Below are positions 11,348-32,040 of a stretch of 47,131 nucleotides of DNA, piece after piece. Origin of the DNA: an uncultured Chlamydiae bacterium (GTDB lineage: Bacteria; Chlamydiota; Chlamydiia; Chlamydiales; Parachlamydiaceae). The position numbers were made by a program, and so were the translations under genes. Under the pieces are notes generated by a model. The model made no database searches. It saw only the letters and a list, made by a program, of their open reading frames with translations, and was not told where the DNA came from. Position 1 is the stretch's first letter. The number at the start of each line of letters is the position of its first letter. Location of the stretch: NCBI GenBank assembly GCA_963830365.1, contig CAWHMU010000025.1, forward strand, positions 1 to 47,131. Reading direction: 5' to 3'.

Positions 11348-11845
11348 CTATCGATCATGCTTTTTTATTAGCAGCCATTGCTTGCCTTTCGGATCATTGG
11401 CCATCTTGACAAGCACAAACTCTCCCTGTAGCTTTTTGCCATAAAGAGTAAATTCCAGCTCGCCTTCTGCCAGTTGTTGGCGGATAGACTGTTCTTGCTC
11501 TTTTTTGCTTTTGCCCGCTACACCATATGTCCCATGATCCCAGATGGCAACTTCACCTGCGCCATAATGCCCGGCGGGAATGGTGCCCTCAAATGAAGCA
11601 TAGGCCAGAGGATGGTCTTCCACCTGGATAGCCAAACGTTTTACGGACGGATCAATGGAGGGGCCTTTTGGAATCGCCCAGCTCACCAACACACCGCCAA
11701 GTTCAAGCCGGAAATCGTAATGCAAATGCCGCGCAGCATGTTTTTGGACAACAAAGCGCAATTTCCCTGAAGTGATTTTCTCTGTCCCCGCAGGCTTGCC
11801 GATTGCATCCAATTGGCGTTTAGCATGATAAGATTTCAGGTTCAT
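11348..11845 (-). CDS. Stand-alone LigD 3'-phosphoesterase (PE) domain protein
   Basis: FVVQKHAARHLHYDFRLE, SWAIPKGPS, RLAIQVEDHP, YGAG.V.IWD.G. Start taken at MNLKSY because the upstream extension runs into a repeat. Confidence 0.9.
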   Translation of the reverse strand: MNLKSYHAKRQLDAIGKPAGTEKITSGKLRFVVQKHAARHLHYDFRLELGGVLVSWAIPKGPSIDPSVKRLAIQVEDHPLAYASFEGTIPAGHYGAGEVAIWDHGTYGVAGKSKKEQEQSIRQQLAEGELEFTLYGKKLQGEFVLVKMANDPKGKQWLLIKKHDR

Positions 11846-11950
11846 GACGACAGCTCCATTTAGCTGCGAAATTACGCCAGGTATATTTTTTGTGGAACAT
11901 CTATTCTTTAAGATGAGGGTGCTAATTATAAATATCTTTAGCCAATTACC

Positions 11951-12746
11951 CTTGTCGTTACCCACAACTATCAATCGAATATTTTAAGTATCTTTTTGGC
12001 CATTCTCATCTTCGTAGGGAAAATATTCGGTCACCAAAGCAAAAAGAGAGGAACTCCTACGGAGTTAAACAAGAATATGCGTTTTCCCGTAGCTGCGGGT
12101 GTCTTCGCTTGCGCTCGCACGCCTTAGCCATGGGCTACAAAGAGATAAGCTCCGCCAACAAAAAAACTTTGAAATATATTCACAATGAGGTTTATCAATC
12201 TACCTTCTTTGCCGCTACATAGGCCATGAGTTCTATTGAGGTCTTGCAGATCGATCTCTTTGTAGCCCGTAGTTAAGGCTCGCGAGCGCAAGCGAAGACA
12301 GCCGCAACTTCGGGGAAACGAATAATTGCATTTAACTCCGTAGGAGTTCCTCTCTTTTTGCTTTCTTGACCGAATAAGCGAGGTTCATCACGCAAATGAG
12401 TACCTAATTAACAAAACCCTAAGAGCAATCTCCATTTTTCTTCTCTGTGCCTCTGTGTCTCGGTGGTGAAGCTTTCCGTAACACTCCGATTGATAATACT
12501 ATACATCCAGCAAGCAGATTTCACCACAGAGGCACAGAGTCACAGAGAAGGTCGGGAAAACCTCATGGGTACTCATTTGCGTGATGAGCCTTAATAAATT
12601 GTCTGCTTCTCTTTTTCAACTAGTCTAAACTAGGTCCATTTCTCCTTTCTCCTCGGTCAGGTACTCATTTGCGCTATGAGCCATAAGCGATCATGGCAAA
12701 AAAAATGACTTAAAATATTCGCTTGATAGTTGTGGGTAACGACAAG
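11951..12746. mobile_element. Non-autonomous long-palindromic element with 9-bp target duplication
   Basis: Terminal IRs cttgtcgttacccacaactatcaa.cgaatattttaagt at both ends. Flanks are ccaattacc (11942-11950) and ctaattacc (12747-12755). Inner arms 12022-12148 and 12255-12378 are also complementary. Confidence 0.8.
12382..12682. mobile_element. 301-bp MITE-A, copy 1
   Basis: TIR ggttcatcacgcaaatgagtacc; perfect 8-bp TSD ATAAGCGA (12374-12381 / 12683-12690); near-identical inverted copy at 43780-44080. Confidence 0.92.
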
Positions 12747-12952
12747 CTAATTACCCTTTCTTTTGCTAGATAAAGAGATAGTTAAAACCCCGGTGCTTTT
12801 AAAAATATCATTTACATATATCCGCCAATTTATATACAGTCAGCTTTAAGGGAATAAGGTGTTTATTTGATAGCGCTCACGATGATTTGCAGAACAGTTT
12901 AGCGCCAGTAACCCGCCTTATTTTTGCTTTATGTCAACCAATGGGATTTATT

Positions 12953-13387
12953 ATGATTATTGAAATTAGCCTTGTCATCATTGCGGTTTGTTTGGTGTTG
13001 CTCATCGTTGTGGCTTTGATCGTTGGCATCAGCCTGCAAAAAAGCCTTAAAAATATCGACCAAGCCATCACATCCGTAGAATTCAAACTCGATAATGCGC
13101 TGGATGAAGTCAGCACCACTCTCTGCCAAGCTACCGCCACCTTAGACTCCCTGAACGAACTCACGATCTCCATTAAAAATAAAATCGATTCAACGGACCC
13201 TCTATTTGATTCGATTGCTAAAGTCGGCCACGTCGTGCAAGGTTTTTTAAGCTCTATGCCCAAGGAAAATAAATTCCAGAACATCATCAACTTTACGAGC
13301 TCCAAAGAAAAATTCAATATCGCCGATCTTGCCGAATGGGTAGGGCTTGGAGTCATTTTATGGCAGAAACTAAAAAAAAGGATTTAA
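12953..13387 (+). CDS. DUF948 (YoxC-like) general stress membrane protein
   Basis: N-terminal TM, coiled coil, C-terminal WVGLGVILWQK; precedes YtxH genes. Confidence 0.7.
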   Translation: MIIEISLVIIAVCLVLLIVVALIVGISLQKSLKNIDQAITSVEFKLDNALDEVSTTLCQATATLDSLNELTISIKNKIDSTDPLFDSIAKVGHVVQGFLSSMPKENKFQNIINFTSSKEKFNIADLAEWVGLGVILWQKLKKRI

Positions 13388-13389
13388 TT

Positions 13390-14016
13390 ATGAGAAAGCA
13401 AGAATCTTTTCACGTTTCTAATCAAACGATCGTCGGTGGGGTACTCATCGGTACTGCACTGGGAGCGCTGACAGCCTTCCTAATGTCAAATTCAGGCAGG
13501 CATGTCAGGCAGAACCTTTCAAAAATGTGCTGCGATATTAGCGAACAGGCCCAAGATATCGCCCACCACATTGCTAAAAAATCAGAAGAAGTCTCTGAGC
13601 AAGTCTCTGAGCGCCTCTTCAACAACGGCAATAGCCGCCATACCCCGCAACATCTGAATTTGATCATCGGCAGCATCGCCGGCGGCATCTTGGGCATCTC
13701 GGCCATTGCCTTCTTGACACACGATTCCACTAAAGACGTGCGCAAAAACCTCCTGAAAAATTTTCAATCATTCACTAACAAAACCTATAAGATGGCCGAC
13801 AATCTTGAAGAAACTGCTCACGACGTGGCCGAAAACTTTGAAGAGCATGTGACATCATGGGTCAAGACGGCCCAGAAATTTATCGACACCTTAAACGGCT
13901 GCGCCAAGACGGCCTGCGAAAAATCGCATCTAAGCGAAGTGACAGATTCAACAGTCGACAAAGTTGTCGATTGGGCCTCCTTTGGAATTCGGCTATATCA
14001 AAGTCTAAAAAAATAG
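13390..14016 (+). CDS. YtxH-domain protein (two TM + helical repeats)
   Basis: GVLIGTALGALTAFLMSNSGRHVRQNL and a second similar unit. Confidence 0.65.
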   Translation: MRKQESFHVSNQTIVGGVLIGTALGALTAFLMSNSGRHVRQNLSKMCCDISEQAQDIAHHIAKKSEEVSEQVSERLFNNGNSRHTPQHLNLIIGSIAGGILGISAIAFLTHDSTKDVRKNLLKNFQSFTNKTYKMADNLEETAHDVAENFEEHVTSWVKTAQKFIDTLNGCAKTACEKSHLSEVTDSTVDKVVDWASFGIRLYQSLKK

Positions 14017-14025
14017 GAGTTCACC

Positions 14026-14472
14026 ATGACAAAACTTAAAATTCTAACAGGTGCAGCTATTGGGACTCTGCTAGGTTCTTTGGCCATCGCCTTATATCCC
14101 AGACGGCAAGAAATTATGGATGCCATCGCAGACCAAAGCGAAGGGCTATCTGACAAGGCCAGAGACTATATCGATGCGCTCATCAGCAAAGGCGCCGTAC
14201 TGACACACCTGAGAGAAGAGGAAGAAGATCGCAGCGTCTACTGGAAAAGCGGACTGGCCGGGGTGTTATTCGGCGCAGGCGCGGCCCTATTTTTGGCACC
14301 CAAATCCGGCAAGCAGCTGCGCTCTCAAGTCCTTCGCGTATACAATGACCTCTCAGGCAGAACGCAGGAAGTCATCCGCGATTTTAAAAACAACGGACAT
14401 CCTTTCCACCACGTAGAGACGATTCGCCCGGTCAAAAGGGCCGTTAAACGCGCTGTAAAACCGAAAAGCTAA
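14026..14472 (+). CDS. YtxH-domain protein
   Basis: GAGAALFLAPKSGKQLRSQV signature; RBS aggag. Confidence 0.8.
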   Translation: MTKLKILTGAAIGTLLGSLAIALYPRRQEIMDAIADQSEGLSDKARDYIDALISKGAVLTHLREEEEDRSVYWKSGLAGVLFGAGAALFLAPKSGKQLRSQVLRVYNDLSGRTQEVIRDFKNNGHPFHHVETIRPVKRAVKRAVKPKS

Positions 14473-14477
14473 AAAAT

Positions 14478-14510
14478 CCGCAACTCCGGGCAAACGCCAG
14501 GAGTTGCGGG
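14478..14510 (+). terminator. Hairpin after the ytxH operon
   Basis: ccgcaactcc...ggagttgcgg stem right after the stop. Confidence 0.6.
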
Positions 14511-14857
14511 TGTCTATTGGATTGAGAATTCACTAAATTTATCAGCACCTTGCGTTGCCATGGATTTACACCCACAATGAGGCATAAGTCAACTCTGGTC
14601 ATAAGTTTCAAAAAAAGGGTAGAGGGGAATTTTCCGAACGGATTTTTCCACTGCGGATGGCAAGGAATGTGAATTTTTCACTTGAGATGTTAAATATATT
14701 TCTATACACATTAAGATATAACTACCCCACTTCGAAAATGGCTCGAAGGGCTTAAAACACTTTTATAAAACATCCAAAAGTCACTTTATCTAGTTTTTTT
14801 TCGCTTCACACTCGCTACAACCGTAACTAAAAGATCGTCTTAAACCAAGGAGATCTC

Positions 14858-16123
14858 ATGTATAGATTGCTGATGGCCCTGTGCTTGTTAGCTTCAAGCA
14901 ACCTCTTAACAACCGCTGCTTTAGAAGCAGCTCCCGCCTACTATTCAAATCAAAACCAATATTATAGCAATCAAAACTTCGATTGCAACCCAGACCAGGC
15001 GCCATGCGTGCCGGAAGTCATCTGTGGACCGCAAGGACCTCCCGGCCCTCAAGGGCCATGCGGACCCCAAGGTGAATGCGGTCCTCAAGGCCCATGCGGC
15101 CCATGCGGACCTTGCGGGAATGACGGCGCTTGCGGCCGCGATGGAGCTTGCGGCCGCGATGGAGCTTGTGGTCCTTGCGGCCGTGATGGTGCCTGCGGAC
15201 CTTGCGGACCTGAAGGGGCTTGCGGCCCTGAAGGGGCTTGCGGAACTTGTGGTCCTATCGGTCCTATGGGGCCTCCAGGACCAATCGGAGCCACCGGGCC
15301 TCAAGGGCCTGCCGGCATGATTGGTCCGGCCGGAGCTGCCGGATCTCAGGGCCTACAAGGACCAGTTGGAGCGCCTGGACCTGTTGGCTCTCAGGGTCCT
15401 ATGGGACCTGGCGGCCCACAAGGCTTGCAAGGACCGACCGGTCCACAAGGTGAAACCGGCCATCAAGGGCCTAAAGGCGATACAGGCGCCCAAGGCCCTA
15501 GAGGCGAAGCCGGCCCAAGAGGCTTGGACGGAGCACAAGGTCCTGCCGGCATCCAAGGATGCTGTGGTGAGCATGGCTGTCAAGGGCCTTGTGGTGAATG
15601 TGGTGCATGTGGTCCTTGCGGCCCTTGTGGTCCTTGTGGCCCTATTGGCCCTTGCGGTATCGGAATCAGCGCGGCCTTTGGCGCGACGACGGATGTAAGG
15701 CAGCAAATATGTGCCAACGGCATTATAAGCGGCTTTTATATGCGTTCGAATGTGTCATTTGGAGGAATTGGATATGACATCAATGGGATATTATTGCCAT
15801 CCAAAGGTTTGTATCAGGTGACCTACGGTGTATCCGTAGAGGGGTCAGCTGATGGGCAAGGCTGTGTGGTGCCGGCAAAGTTCCAATTGACGTTAGCCTC
15901 GCAAAACACCCCGACGGCTCCAGGAGATGTGGTGCCAGGGAGTGCAATATCTGCAAGTAGTCCAAAGCAACTGGTCACTACTACAATATTGATCGAGCTG
16001 TGTGATGCTTCATTTCTGCGCATCCAAAACGTCAGTACAAATCCGGCAGGAGCCTTCCAGCCGGTAGTATTGAATGGCAACGGAGCTACCGCGGCCTTCA
16101 TCACCATCGTCAAACTGCAATAG
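14858..16123 (+). CDS. Secreted cysteine-rich collagen-like protein with BclA-like C-terminal domain
   Basis: RBS aaggag, signal peptide, ~71 uninterrupted Gly-X-Y triplets (15026-15664), beta-rich C-domain ([22 protein letters not shown]). Confidence 0.88.
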
Positions 16124-16140
16124 CTGCAGTGAAAGCGTGG

Positions 16141-16180
16141 AAAAACACCTCCTAAAAATTTTAGGAGGTGTTTTTTTTTA
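16141..16180. terminator. Rho-independent terminator (bidirectional form)
   Basis: aaaaacacctcctaaa-aa-tttaggaggtgttttttttt. Confidence 0.9.
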
Positions 16181-29457: not shown

Positions 29458-32040
29458 ATGTTTAAACTCGTCGTCATTTCCCCTTCACAGACCCCTGCGA
29501 CGCATTGCTTCGATCGTAATTCAATTGTCATTGGCGCTCAAAATTCAACCCTGGCTGATTTCACTGTGGCTGAAGATCTGCTTGATCGCCACGTCCAAAT
29601 CCTTACTCAAATTACTGAAAATAAACCTTATTATTTTATAATCAATCTCGCCCAAGATCCTTTTGTCACCTTGAATGATCTGCCTTTTGGTAAGCGCCCT
29701 CTGCATGACCAAGATGTCATTCAACTTGGAAACACTTCACTGCGCTTTGAACTGGAGGAAATCCAATCCCCGGCTACAGCAGCTGCACCTGTGCCGCAAA
29801 AGAAACTCGAACTGCCGAAGAATAAAGAAGAATTTACCTTTTCCGATATCGATGCCCTTATGCAACAGGTTGAGAATATCGCCGCTGCATCCCCTGAAAA
29901 AAAAGATCTTTCACCACCTGCGGCTGAGATGACAGCCCCCACGGCAGCTCTGCCTGCCACGCAAATAACGCTAGCCACACCAGAAGCGCTTGCTCCTCCA
30001 ATTGCGATTCCCCATGCACCCGTATCCGAAGAGGCTAATGGCGCTTTGCTGCCAGTGGAAACACCCAGCGCTGCGGCTGAATCCCAAGCCGTAATAAACG
30101 CCCCTCCCCCCCCTGCTGAAGCCGAATCTGCCGCGCCATCCTCAACAGCACATACCCCTAAACTTTGCCTCAAAGATTACTATTTGAGCGAATACGACGA
30201 AGACCATGAAAGCAATCACCCTGTGCGCGAACCCGTCCAGAAAAACACTACAGATACTGTAGAGAAGACCTATTGGTCCGAAGGTTTCAAAATCCTCGCC
30301 TCCTTAGTCGGTGTTTTCAGCATCATCATGAGCTTAGCCTACCTTTGGATCAGCGATCAAAGTGGTGAAGCGGAAATCCGTGCCGCCAGAAGCATTGCCG
30401 ATGTAACGATGGCCCTCACCTATGCCGATATCAAACATATCCATCCTCAGAATCAAAATTGGTCCGATCCCGAATTCATCAACAATACGCTTACTGCCGT
30501 GCTTGCCCCCGAATACCCTTCGCTGGCCCAATTCGATACCCATAGCCAATTTGCCTCTTGCCCATATATGCTTAGGATATATACCAGCAGCAACTTGGCG
30601 CAATTCCTGGTGATCGCCCAGCCCGCCCCAAGCTTGCTGCAGTGGATGGTGCCTAAAGCGACTATCATCATCGATTCCTCTGCCATGGAAATGCGTAAAA
30701 TCAAAGATCTAAAAGCCCTCAACCGGCTATTAGTTAATGCCAATATGGCCGAGGGAACCCACTCCGATGAAATTTCCGGACTTGTTAAACAAGGGGAGCT
30801 CATTCCGCTGACTATGCTTAACGATAAAAAGGAAAAGTATGGCTTTGCTCCCCCCAAAGCTTTGGCTTTGATCCGACCAGGCGCCGAAAATCTTGTCTAT
30901 AACGCTCCTCGCTATTATTTGCTTGGCCAAAATCTTATCGGCAAAGCTTTTGAGCTTATCGAAAAGCCTGCCAGCAATCATGAAGTGGCCATGTTCCAGC
31001 AAGAACTCACCGCTTTGGCGGACTTCCCAAATCTTATTTTATATTCCCCCGAAGGACTGCAAGAAGCCCTGGAATCGCAAAAGGCTTTGACATTGCTTGC
31101 GCCGAAAGAAAAATTTCTCATAGCATACCTGCAACACAACGCCCAAGGAATCATCACCGGCGCACATTTATTGATGGATGATGCCCCGGACGAAGAGGTT
31201 GTCGGCAAACAGCCCCTCCCCCAAGCAGAATCCCCGAGCCATAGTAAGCCCTCCCAAATAGCAGCTTTAGCGACATCAGTATCATTCCACCCCAGCACCA
31301 TTTCGCTGGCCGAACAATTCGGCATCGATCAAAGAGACCCTCTCTTCATACGATTATCAGCCCTTACAACAAACCGTCAGCAAGAATTACAGCCGATCAG
31401 CGACGAAATAACTTCGCTCCTGCATGCCCAAACACTAGCCTGGCAGCCATCTTTTGCAGAACATTTTTTGAAACTGCAGGCACAATATTTAAAAATCGAT
31501 GAAGAACAGCTTGGAAAGATCGTGCAGAGTCTGGCCGCCATCTCTCGTGACACCACGTATCTGCCGGCTTCGCGTTTCCTGGAATTTGTCAAAGCCGCCG
31601 CACTTGAACCGTTTCTACAGCAATGGCTGACTACCCTTAAGCAAGATCCCGCCACCAACCAGATTTCTGCCGAAGAAATAGAACAATTGCATAAGCAAAT
31701 TGAAATGAGCGCCACCTGGCAGGAACTGGAAAACAATATAGATCCGGTGGCCGATCTCTTATATTTGGGCAATATACCCGATGAAGAAAATCTAATCTCC
31801 TATCAAAATGCGATCCGCACTCACGTCATCCAGAAATTGAACCTCTTCTTTTTGTCTGCAGATAACCAAGCACTCCCCAAAGAGGCTTTTATGCCCGAAT
31901 ATCGACAAATCCTGATCAACATCCTCGAATCGGCCTGGATCATCGATTCCGATACCTATAACTTCTATCTGGACGAATTCGACTTAAAATCCGCTCCCAT
32001 GCGTACTTTAAAACAGGTGAAAGACAATGGATCCCTTTGA
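29458..32040 (+). CDS. Large FHA-like domain membrane protein, function unknown
   Basis: N-terminal FHA-like fold (IVIG...RHVQI...VTLND...LHDQDVIQLGNTSLRF), Pro/Ala linker, one TM (~aa 278-298), long C-terminal region. Confidence 0.65.
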   Translation: MFKLVVISPSQTPATHCFDRNSIVIGAQNSTLADFTVAEDLLDRHVQILTQITENKPYYFIINLAQDPFVTLNDLPFGKRPLHDQDVIQLGNTSLRFELEEIQSPATAAAPVPQKKLELPKNKEEFTFSDIDALMQQVENIAAASPEKKDLSPPAAEMTAPTAALPATQITLATPEALAPPIAIPHAPVSEEANGALLPVETPSAAAESQAVINAPPPPAEAESAAPSSTAHTPKLCLKDYYLSEYDEDHESNHPVREPVQKNTTDTVEKTYWSEGFKILASLVGVFSIIMSLAYLWISDQSGEAEIRAARSIADVTMALTYADIKHIHPQNQNWSDPEFINNTLTAVLAPEYPSLAQFDTHSQFASCPYMLRIYTSSNLAQFLVIAQPAPSLLQWMVPKATIIIDSSAMEMRKIKDLKALNRLLVNANMAEGTHSDEISGLVKQGELIPLTMLNDKKEKYGFAPPKALALIRPGAENLVYNAPRYYLLGQNLIGKAFELIEKPASNHEVAMFQQELTALADFPNLILYSPEGLQEALESQKALTLLAPKEKFLIAYLQHNAQGIITGAHLLMDDAPDEEVVGKQPLPQAESPSHSKPSQIAALATSVSFHPSTISLAEQFGIDQRDPLFIRLSALTTNRQQELQPISDEITSLLHAQTLAWQPSFAEHFLKLQAQYLKIDEEQLGKIVQSLAAISRDTTYLPASRFLEFVKAAALEPFLQQWLTTLKQDPATNQISAEEIEQLHKQIEMSATWQELENNIDPVADLLYLGNIPDEENLISYQNAIRTHVIQKLNLFFLSADNQALPKEAFMPEYRQILINILESAWIIDSDTYNFYLDEFDLKSAPMRTLKQVKDNGSL

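Follow-up and report, generated by a model that had tools for sequence, protein, structure and literature searches.

A probably exported chlamydial collagen-like protein with cysteine blocks at both ends of its predicted triple helix

Introduction

Cysteine inside collagen helices is held to be rare and, where found, to be committed to intermolecular bonds. A gene in the window analyzed here, the whole 47,131-nucleotide stretch of DNA, raises the question of what a bacterium would do with a probably exported collagen-like protein whose predicted helix is crowded with cysteine near both ends and bare of it in the middle. The original prediction, made from the sequence alone, proposed trimeric rods crosslinked at both ends into a redox-reversible coat of a chlamydial cell, analogous to minicollagens. 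The host is indeed chlamydial: the genome belongs to an uncultured member of the family Parachlamydiaceae (2.73 Mb, 48.6% GC, 82% complete). Among open-licence papers, we found no description of this Cys-block family or of dense Gly-X-Cys bacterial collagens, and no dedicated paper on the collagen-like genes of Parachlamydiaceae.

Results

The collagen gene and its surroundings

The collagen gene (positions 14858-16123, forward strand) encodes 421 amino acids and lies between two hairpins, with the following features.

14476..14511, +, hairpin closing the upstream ytxH-like gene, between that gene and the collagen gene (-27.7 kcal/mol, z -6.7)
14847..14852, +, Shine-Dalgarno-like AAGGAG, read from the sequence
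14858..14929, +, predicted Sec signal peptide, aa 1-24, likely cut after LEA (LEA-A), no lipobox, assigned by eye
14930..15025, +, Tyr/Asn/Gln-rich tail, then a Cys-Pro linker (C43, C50, C56) into the helix, aa 25-56, read from the sequence
15026..15250, +, N-terminal Cys block of triplets 1-25 with 14 Cys, each at Y; some 21.5 nm long if helical
15251..15556, +, spacer without Cys (triplets 26-59, some 29 nm), with the conserved GPKGDTGxQGPRGE
15557..15664, +, C-terminal Cys block, triplets 60-70, 10 Cys (8 at Y, 2 at X), plus the final triplet
15665..16123, +, predicted BclA-C/C1q-TNF-fold head, aa 270-421, with the stop codon (AlphaFold2, Foldseek)
16139..16177, +, intrinsic-terminator-like hairpin, then a T-run (-22.3 kcal/mol, z -6.4; none of 200 shuffles equally stable)

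Hairpins on both sides suggest that the gene is likely transcribed alone, as a single unit. The downstream hairpin and its T-run agree with the strong terminator that had been anticipated 3' of the gene, and a consensus terminator scan missed this element. An operon or multi-gene system was rejected in view of the flanking hairpins and of the differing neighbors in G007, G074, G094, G073 and L178. According to Pfam, the neighbors in the window comprise ytxG/ytxH-like genes on the upstream side and, downstream, genes for a hexapeptide transferase and an efflux pump; genes beside Cys-block collagens differ at every locus examined, and one of the five L178 neighbors matched our genome, at 57%. 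A reading as a modified peptide (RiPP) was dropped, the modifying enzyme being absent nearby. An antisense or frame artifact was rejected as well, since the signal peptide, the unbroken register and the BclA-like head all lie on the forward strand; the GAC, GEC and GRD triplets do not encode collagen on the other strand. In the sequencing-run search, no RNA run carrying the gene was listed and one DNA run was (share 0.08). Run X1 contains one 167-nt contig identical to positions 15149-15315, which supports the sequence weakly because the run may be the source sample.

Several other parts of the window drew our attention. Positions 1-2208 have a GC content of 60-63%, against 48.6% for the genome, and could be a foreign island or a chimeric contig end; the ORFs there (395-964 and 961-2208), which lack an NCBIfam match, presumably resemble a DUF58/transglutaminase-like membrane gene pair. 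A stand-alone gene for a LigD 3'-phosphoesterase domain lies at 11348-11974. At 12887-14472, a DUF948 gene is followed by two consecutive YtxH-like genes (Pfam), a row similar to the Bacillus ytxGH general-stress genes. An 860-aa ORF at 29458-32040, with a Pro/Ala-rich stretch, one predicted membrane segment and no match in the Pfam scan, overlaps the start of a murF-alr fusion.

Cysteine layout of the collagen stretch

Glycine occupies every third residue from aa 57 to 269, forming 71 unbroken Gly-X-Y triplets, and PF01391 (E 5.8e-29) is the sole family in the Pfam scan of the protein. Triplets 1-25 carry 14 Cys, triplets 26-59 none and triplets 60-70 ten, with 22 of the 24 helix cysteines at Y and two at X. 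Every count in the original prediction, from the roughly 71 uninterrupted triplets in three blocks to the almost exclusive use of Y, was thus exact. Cysteine occurs in 23 triplets, the two end patches span 36 of the 71, and a Cys-free run as long as 34 triplets arose in none of 100,000 triplet shuffles. The signal peptide that had also been proposed shows a hydrophobic core and an LEA-A site, judged by eye, and an xEA-A site recurs in five of the six full-length members described below.

Relatives and conservation

A two-row alignment of the head matched five of 73 family genomes, our own included. The fifth match, P0005 (L011:7233-8468, reverse strand), is a distant sister protein, its Cys clusters lying at both helix edges and out of register, so that the Cys-block form is carried by only four of the 73 Parachlamydiaceae genomes. 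Near the head, the cluster of P0005 reads GECCCGGGGC; this protein might have come to the same kind of end crosslinking in a different way. Other species of the carrier genera, several of them at least 96% complete, gave no match to the close head alignment. From 238 candidates, a metagenome scan yielded three loci, namely the full-length members L178 and L179 (the latter cut near its end) and one distant protein with a Cys-free helix. Of ten further hits, four were unrelated or distant (P0010, P0014, P0015 and, more weakly, P0016), and the first three were left out.

Across the six full-length members, helix cysteines per triplets amount to 24/71 (window protein), 6/132 (P0002), 27/110, 23/98, 32/86 and 22/94, with 116 of the 134 at Y and 18 at X. 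The block-gap-block layout is found in all six, P0002 being a weak case with 4+2 Cys, and two-ended blocks appeared in none of 100,000 shuffles for each of the four members tested; these members are kin and so are not independent samples. The C-terminal block is also kept in the fragments P0006 and P0008. A homolog survey had been suggested as a check on the blocks, and their layout is indeed retained in five further full-length relatives, one weakly. The triplets that carry the cysteines vary (GAC/GRD in the window protein, GCP/GEC in P0004), so it is the content and place of cysteine that are kept. Each full-length member also has a Tyr/Gln/Asn tail, then a Cys-Pro linker closed by Cys-Gly-Pro. 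The head tree has 31 rows, L178 and L179 not among them, and in it a single branch with a support of 96/98 unites the seven Cys-block rows with a head-only fragment. Given a gene that stands alone, with unconserved neighbors and in 4 of 73 genomes, we regard it as accessory and not as part of a core envelope system.

Could such blocks be a neutral by-product of repeat slippage or local inversion, in what is otherwise an ordinary collagen-like adhesin? We consider this highly improbable. The gene does contain 18-nt tandem repeats and 70-76% inverted repeats, and the GPQ-GPC unit of P0002 is self-complementary, because codons for Gly-Pro-Gln give Gly-Pro-Cys when the opposite strand is translated. 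This ambiguity can mislead both ORF callers and motif scans. When viral contigs were scanned for GPC-run DNA (L044-L177), the longer Gly-X-Y run was not that of the GPC reading in 129 of 134 matches, which fits the neutral reading. We therefore rejected the scan as a means of surveying Cys-rich collagens, and numbers of such proteins drawn from databases need care. Against a neutral origin, however, the blocks of all six members occupy the two ends and are never central, as the shuffles above underline, the GAC, GEC, GQC and GCP triplets are impossible to derive from inverted collagen DNA, and the GPQ-rich collagens of the family remain Cys-free. Inversion may have been a possible origin of Cys triplets, not of their upkeep, and the neutral reading appears largely refuted.

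Cysteine in other collagen-like proteins

Collagen repeats are found in 63 of the 73 Parachlamydiaceae genomes, some with dozens of matches, while genus g2 mostly lacks them. To set a baseline, we took the 30 loci listed out of about a thousand family matches and removed three clade members; the remaining 27, with 1,701 triplets in all, contain 2 Cys. Across the phylum, 40 of 400 genomes gave a match to a wider head alignment, and the distant head homologues hold 3 Cys in 366 triplets (15 of 27 distant loci scored). These low values indicate that dense helix cysteine is special to the Cys-block branch among the chlamydial collagens examined. The same genome encodes a second secreted collagen-like protein (G000:C42:62107-62913, reverse strand), which is short and Thr-rich and has a helix without Cys.

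A search with the N-terminal block retrieved 29 proteins, several of them equally Cys-dense (19 in 50, 23 in 74 and 22 in 73 triplets), with the cysteines mostly spread along the helix. P0029, which has a precomputed BclA-C match, and P0036 share a similar stalk-and-head layout with mainly one N-terminal Cys block, and P0042, which lacks a signal peptide, approaches a two-ended Cys map in that its far end carries 2 Cys. P0028 looks like an antisense reading. P0017-P0024, P0035 and P0042 are unrelated collagen-like proteins, mostly with 9-23 Cys at Y, and several resemble phage or giant-virus proteins. Collagens with cysteine in the helix thus seem to have arisen several times.

Head domain

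Single-sequence searches with the head were empty (0 of 575 candidates; no PDB sequence, plasmid or viral match), and the model folded from the single sequence was too poor to use (pLDDT 43). It was replaced by an AlphaFold2 model on a 13-row alignment, calculated as a monomer (pLDDT 86.4, pTM 0.83). The model compares with 1wck at TM 0.72/0.81 (Foldseek), its top structural match is BclA-C (Z 16.6, rmsd 2.0, 128 aligned) and F-BclA comes second (Z 16.4; rmsd 2.0-2.1 for the two), followed by TNF and C1q domains. The BclA-like beta-sandwich proposed for this region thus corresponds to a predicted BclA-C/C1q fold, and comparison of aa 270-421 with BclA_C/C1q, put forward as a check, gave an agreeing single-chain fold. 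PF18573 was found in three of the five aligned heads (best E 4.1e-7), the window head alone having no match, and a protein atlas places the window head near BclA-C clusters at 0.90-0.93, as a lead only. The fold, predicted with high confidence, is that of trimer-forming heads, from which a trimer is inferred here.

Helix geometry and disulfide chemistry

We built ideal 7/2 and 10/3 triple helices, adjusting the starting angles until twist, rise and hydrogen bond took their standard values; such models are valid for a folded helix only and silent on frayed or unfolded blocks. In them, the closest approach of two Y sulfurs, on the same or another chain, is 6.0 Å (7/2) or 6.4 Å (10/3), and an X-Y pair on neighboring chains approaches to 2.3 Å. 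This agrees with the statement that two cysteines both at X or both at Y lie too far apart (PMC13138384, section 10, Fig. 8 legend) and with the Yaa-Xaa pair geometry of bioRxiv 10.1101/2024.09.30.615841. The window protein has a single computed site able to bridge chains within the trimer, Gly-Cys-Cys at aa 234-236. Three relatives have such a site in Gly-Glu-Cys-Gly-Cys-Pro, two members are without it, and in all four members concerned, out of six, it lies 6-11 triplets from the head. The remaining 66 Y cysteines per trimer of the window protein point outward in the ideal helix, covering all six 60-degree sectors at 2.0-2.5 per nm. With Y-Y sulfurs at least 6 Å apart, most cysteines would have to pair with other molecules, as most helix cysteines are described to do (PMC13138384, section 10). 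The geometry hence favors the crosslinked trimeric rods of the original prediction insofar as it sends the Y cysteines to other molecules.

Polymerization itself is not guaranteed by these distances. According to PMC3491313, peptides with Gly-Pro-Cys at both ends air-oxidize into polymers of 1-6 helices, with disulfides forming within as well as between helices, and PMC8968730 reports that Scl2 with Cys added at its ends made mostly intramolecular links and no gel.

The end blocks might also not be stably helical, forming CxxC loops or binding metal as a tethered thiol reservoir against oxidants or copper/zinc in the host vacuole, or as a latent reshuffling form; we find this quite unlikely. 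The window protein contains 10 CxxC pairs, thioredoxin has Cys-Gly-Pro-Cys as its motif, and runs of two Cys triplets exceed chance in the N-terminal block of three of the six members (p 0.0008, 0.036 and 0.041, uncorrected for six tests or kinship). The excess is not significant, though, in the window protein (p 0.25) or in two others. The glycine register is unbroken through both blocks in all six members and the proline content of the blocks equals or exceeds that of the spacer, which points to selection for a helix, and within a folded trimer the sulfurs, 6 Å apart, are too far from each other for one metal ion.

Export and envelope machinery

On another contig than the collagen gene, the genome carries two OmcA-like small Cys-rich proteins before an OmcB-like gene (G000:C41:96056-98513, reverse strand). 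Its OmcB has 56 Cys, an expanded N-terminal CPPVC-type repeat and eight CX3CX3C matches, and DsbB is present as well. OmcB was found in all four relatives searched, and both Omc proteins are known from Protochlamydia outer-membrane fractions (PMC3561449). A search of our 82%-complete assembly gave no type II secretion F gene, which the three other carriers do have (3/3). In the collagen protein itself we found no anchor, lipobox or transporter domain. A 60-nm rod would be too long to stand upright in a periplasm. The collagen and omcA upstream regions (about 400 bases each) share only one 10-mer as a promoter motif and have no match to sigma-54- or sigma-28-like patterns. Elsewhere, this genome encodes a secretin with a long low-complexity Gly/Ala/Gln insert (G000:C18:18095-21097, forward strand) and a small protein that looks secreted and carries a (GHH)n repeat (G000:C17:24513-24965, forward strand).

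The chlamydial disulfide coat that had been predicted is consistent with the OmcA/OmcB-like genes and DsbB of this genome; as a general system it is disfavored, the collagen gene being a likely single unit with unconserved neighbors in 4 of 73 genomes. This patchy occurrence would suit a host-specific adhesin: a fixed, small number of parallel rods tethered through the N-terminal block or Cys-Pro linker to OmcA/OmcB, heads toward the host surface and without a mesh. Rods tied into a stalk or bouquet are known from C1q and collectins. The outward Y-Cys geometry applies here equally, the predicted head fold is that of the adhesive tip fibrils F-BclA and L-BclA, and the linker CPQPCLPQC of two members resembles, by eye, the CPPPCKPVC repeats that OmcA and OmcB of this genome contain. 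Cysteine patches covering half the helix (36 of 71 triplets), on the other hand, far exceed what a bouquet needs, and we regard such a bundle as unlikely.

Discussion

Taken together, we lean, with some reserve, toward a trimeric rod some 60 nm long, headed by a domain of predicted BclA/C1q fold. The rod would be exported and disulfide-linked through both ends into a mesh or fiber around the cell, with a probable role in protection or adhesion. Judging by its N-terminus, the protein would leave the cytoplasm through Sec, and the head, as its fold family suggests, would trimerize and start the helix. The Cys pair near the head may, on geometric grounds, staple the three chains in those members that have the site (four of six). 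The 66 outward Y-thiols per trimer, in patches of about 21 and 10 nm and out of mutual reach in the folded trimer, would on oxidation form bonds with those of other rods or with Cys-rich envelope proteins. The Cys-free middle could act as a spacer and so determine the mesh size, which would be 29 nm in this protein and as much as about 100 nm in its relatives. Within the host cell, reduction might then loosen the mesh, by analogy with OmcA/OmcB; this is the step with the least support. A stronger version, in which a collagen lattice of fixed mesh on the infectious body is held by end-block disulfides and tied to OmcA/OmcB, sets on host exit and dissolves on entry, is conceivable though rather doubtful.

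By its stalk and predicted head fold, the window protein is a BclA-C-headed bacterial collagen-like protein. BclA, L-BclA and F-BclA (PF01391 + PF18573) likewise combine an unbroken Gly-X-Y stalk with a C-terminal BclA-C/C1q-fold head. Unlike Bacillus BclA, it has a Sec-type signal, a non-sporulating diderm host, a head identity of only 14-18% and dense in-helix Cys blocks, and neither an exosporium leader nor appendage genes beside the gene. No exosporium leader family was among its Pfam or NCBIfam matches, and it is not BclA proper; we assume that NCBIfam holds such a leader model. The NCBIfam cut-offs for Lcl, Scl1 and Scl2 were not reached (114 of 500, 98 of 400 and 106 of 325 bits, from the collagen repeat only). 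In length, the stalk is similar to that of L-BclA (173 residues, about 52 nm; PMC11362473).

Cnidarian minicollagens also have a collagen core with Cys-rich ends and form intermolecular disulfide polymers, and in PMC4863159 they are described with 12-16 Gly-X-Y triplets, polyproline and CX3CX3CX3CX3CC domains outside the helix. The window protein differs in its 71 triplets, its cysteines inside the register, its globular head and its lack of polyproline and of that cysteine pattern, of which a partial CX3CX3C occurs in the linker of two relatives; there is no homology. The predicted analogy therefore stands for the Cys-rich ends of a collagen core, but the defining features of minicollagens are absent: the protein may work like a minicollagen without being one.

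Proteins of the otolin-1 type combine a collagen with a C1q head. In Otolin-1, two cysteines in one triplet can bridge chains and others are left for other molecules (PMC13138384), much as Gly-Cys-Cys at aa 234-236 could do here; the window protein, however, has 23 Cys-bearing triplets against one such triplet there, and otolin-1 and similar animal proteins depend on hydroxyproline. OmcA and OmcB are also exported and Cys-rich and would in principle share the compartment, collagen export being predicted, but they have no sequence or fold relation to the window protein, which lacks the chlamydial Cys-rich outer-membrane-protein domain in the Pfam scan, and OmcB was found in every relative searched whereas the collagen gene is confined to few genomes. 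Synthetic CRPcys peptides and Cys-capped Scl2 hydrogels likewise carry cysteine at both helix ends (Gly-Pro-Cys) and are crosslinked by oxidation; those are engineered with one Cys per end, whereas the window protein is natural and has 10-14.

A natural collagen with cysteine in a third of its triplets, in two end patches around a variable spacer, matches what engineers construct deliberately to obtain redox-sensitive hydrogels. Were it to polymerize, it would be a hydroxyproline-free, self-trimerizing and self-crosslinking scaffold. Should the lattice reading be true, it would represent a bacterial reinvention of the minicollagen principle, a redox-switchable biomaterial and the first natural collagen crosslinked through dense cysteine within its own helix. 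The finding draws attention to the collagen-like genes present in most Parachlamydiaceae genomes and, if the rods do polymerize, would mean that environmental chlamydiae supplement their disulfide envelope with accessory layers.
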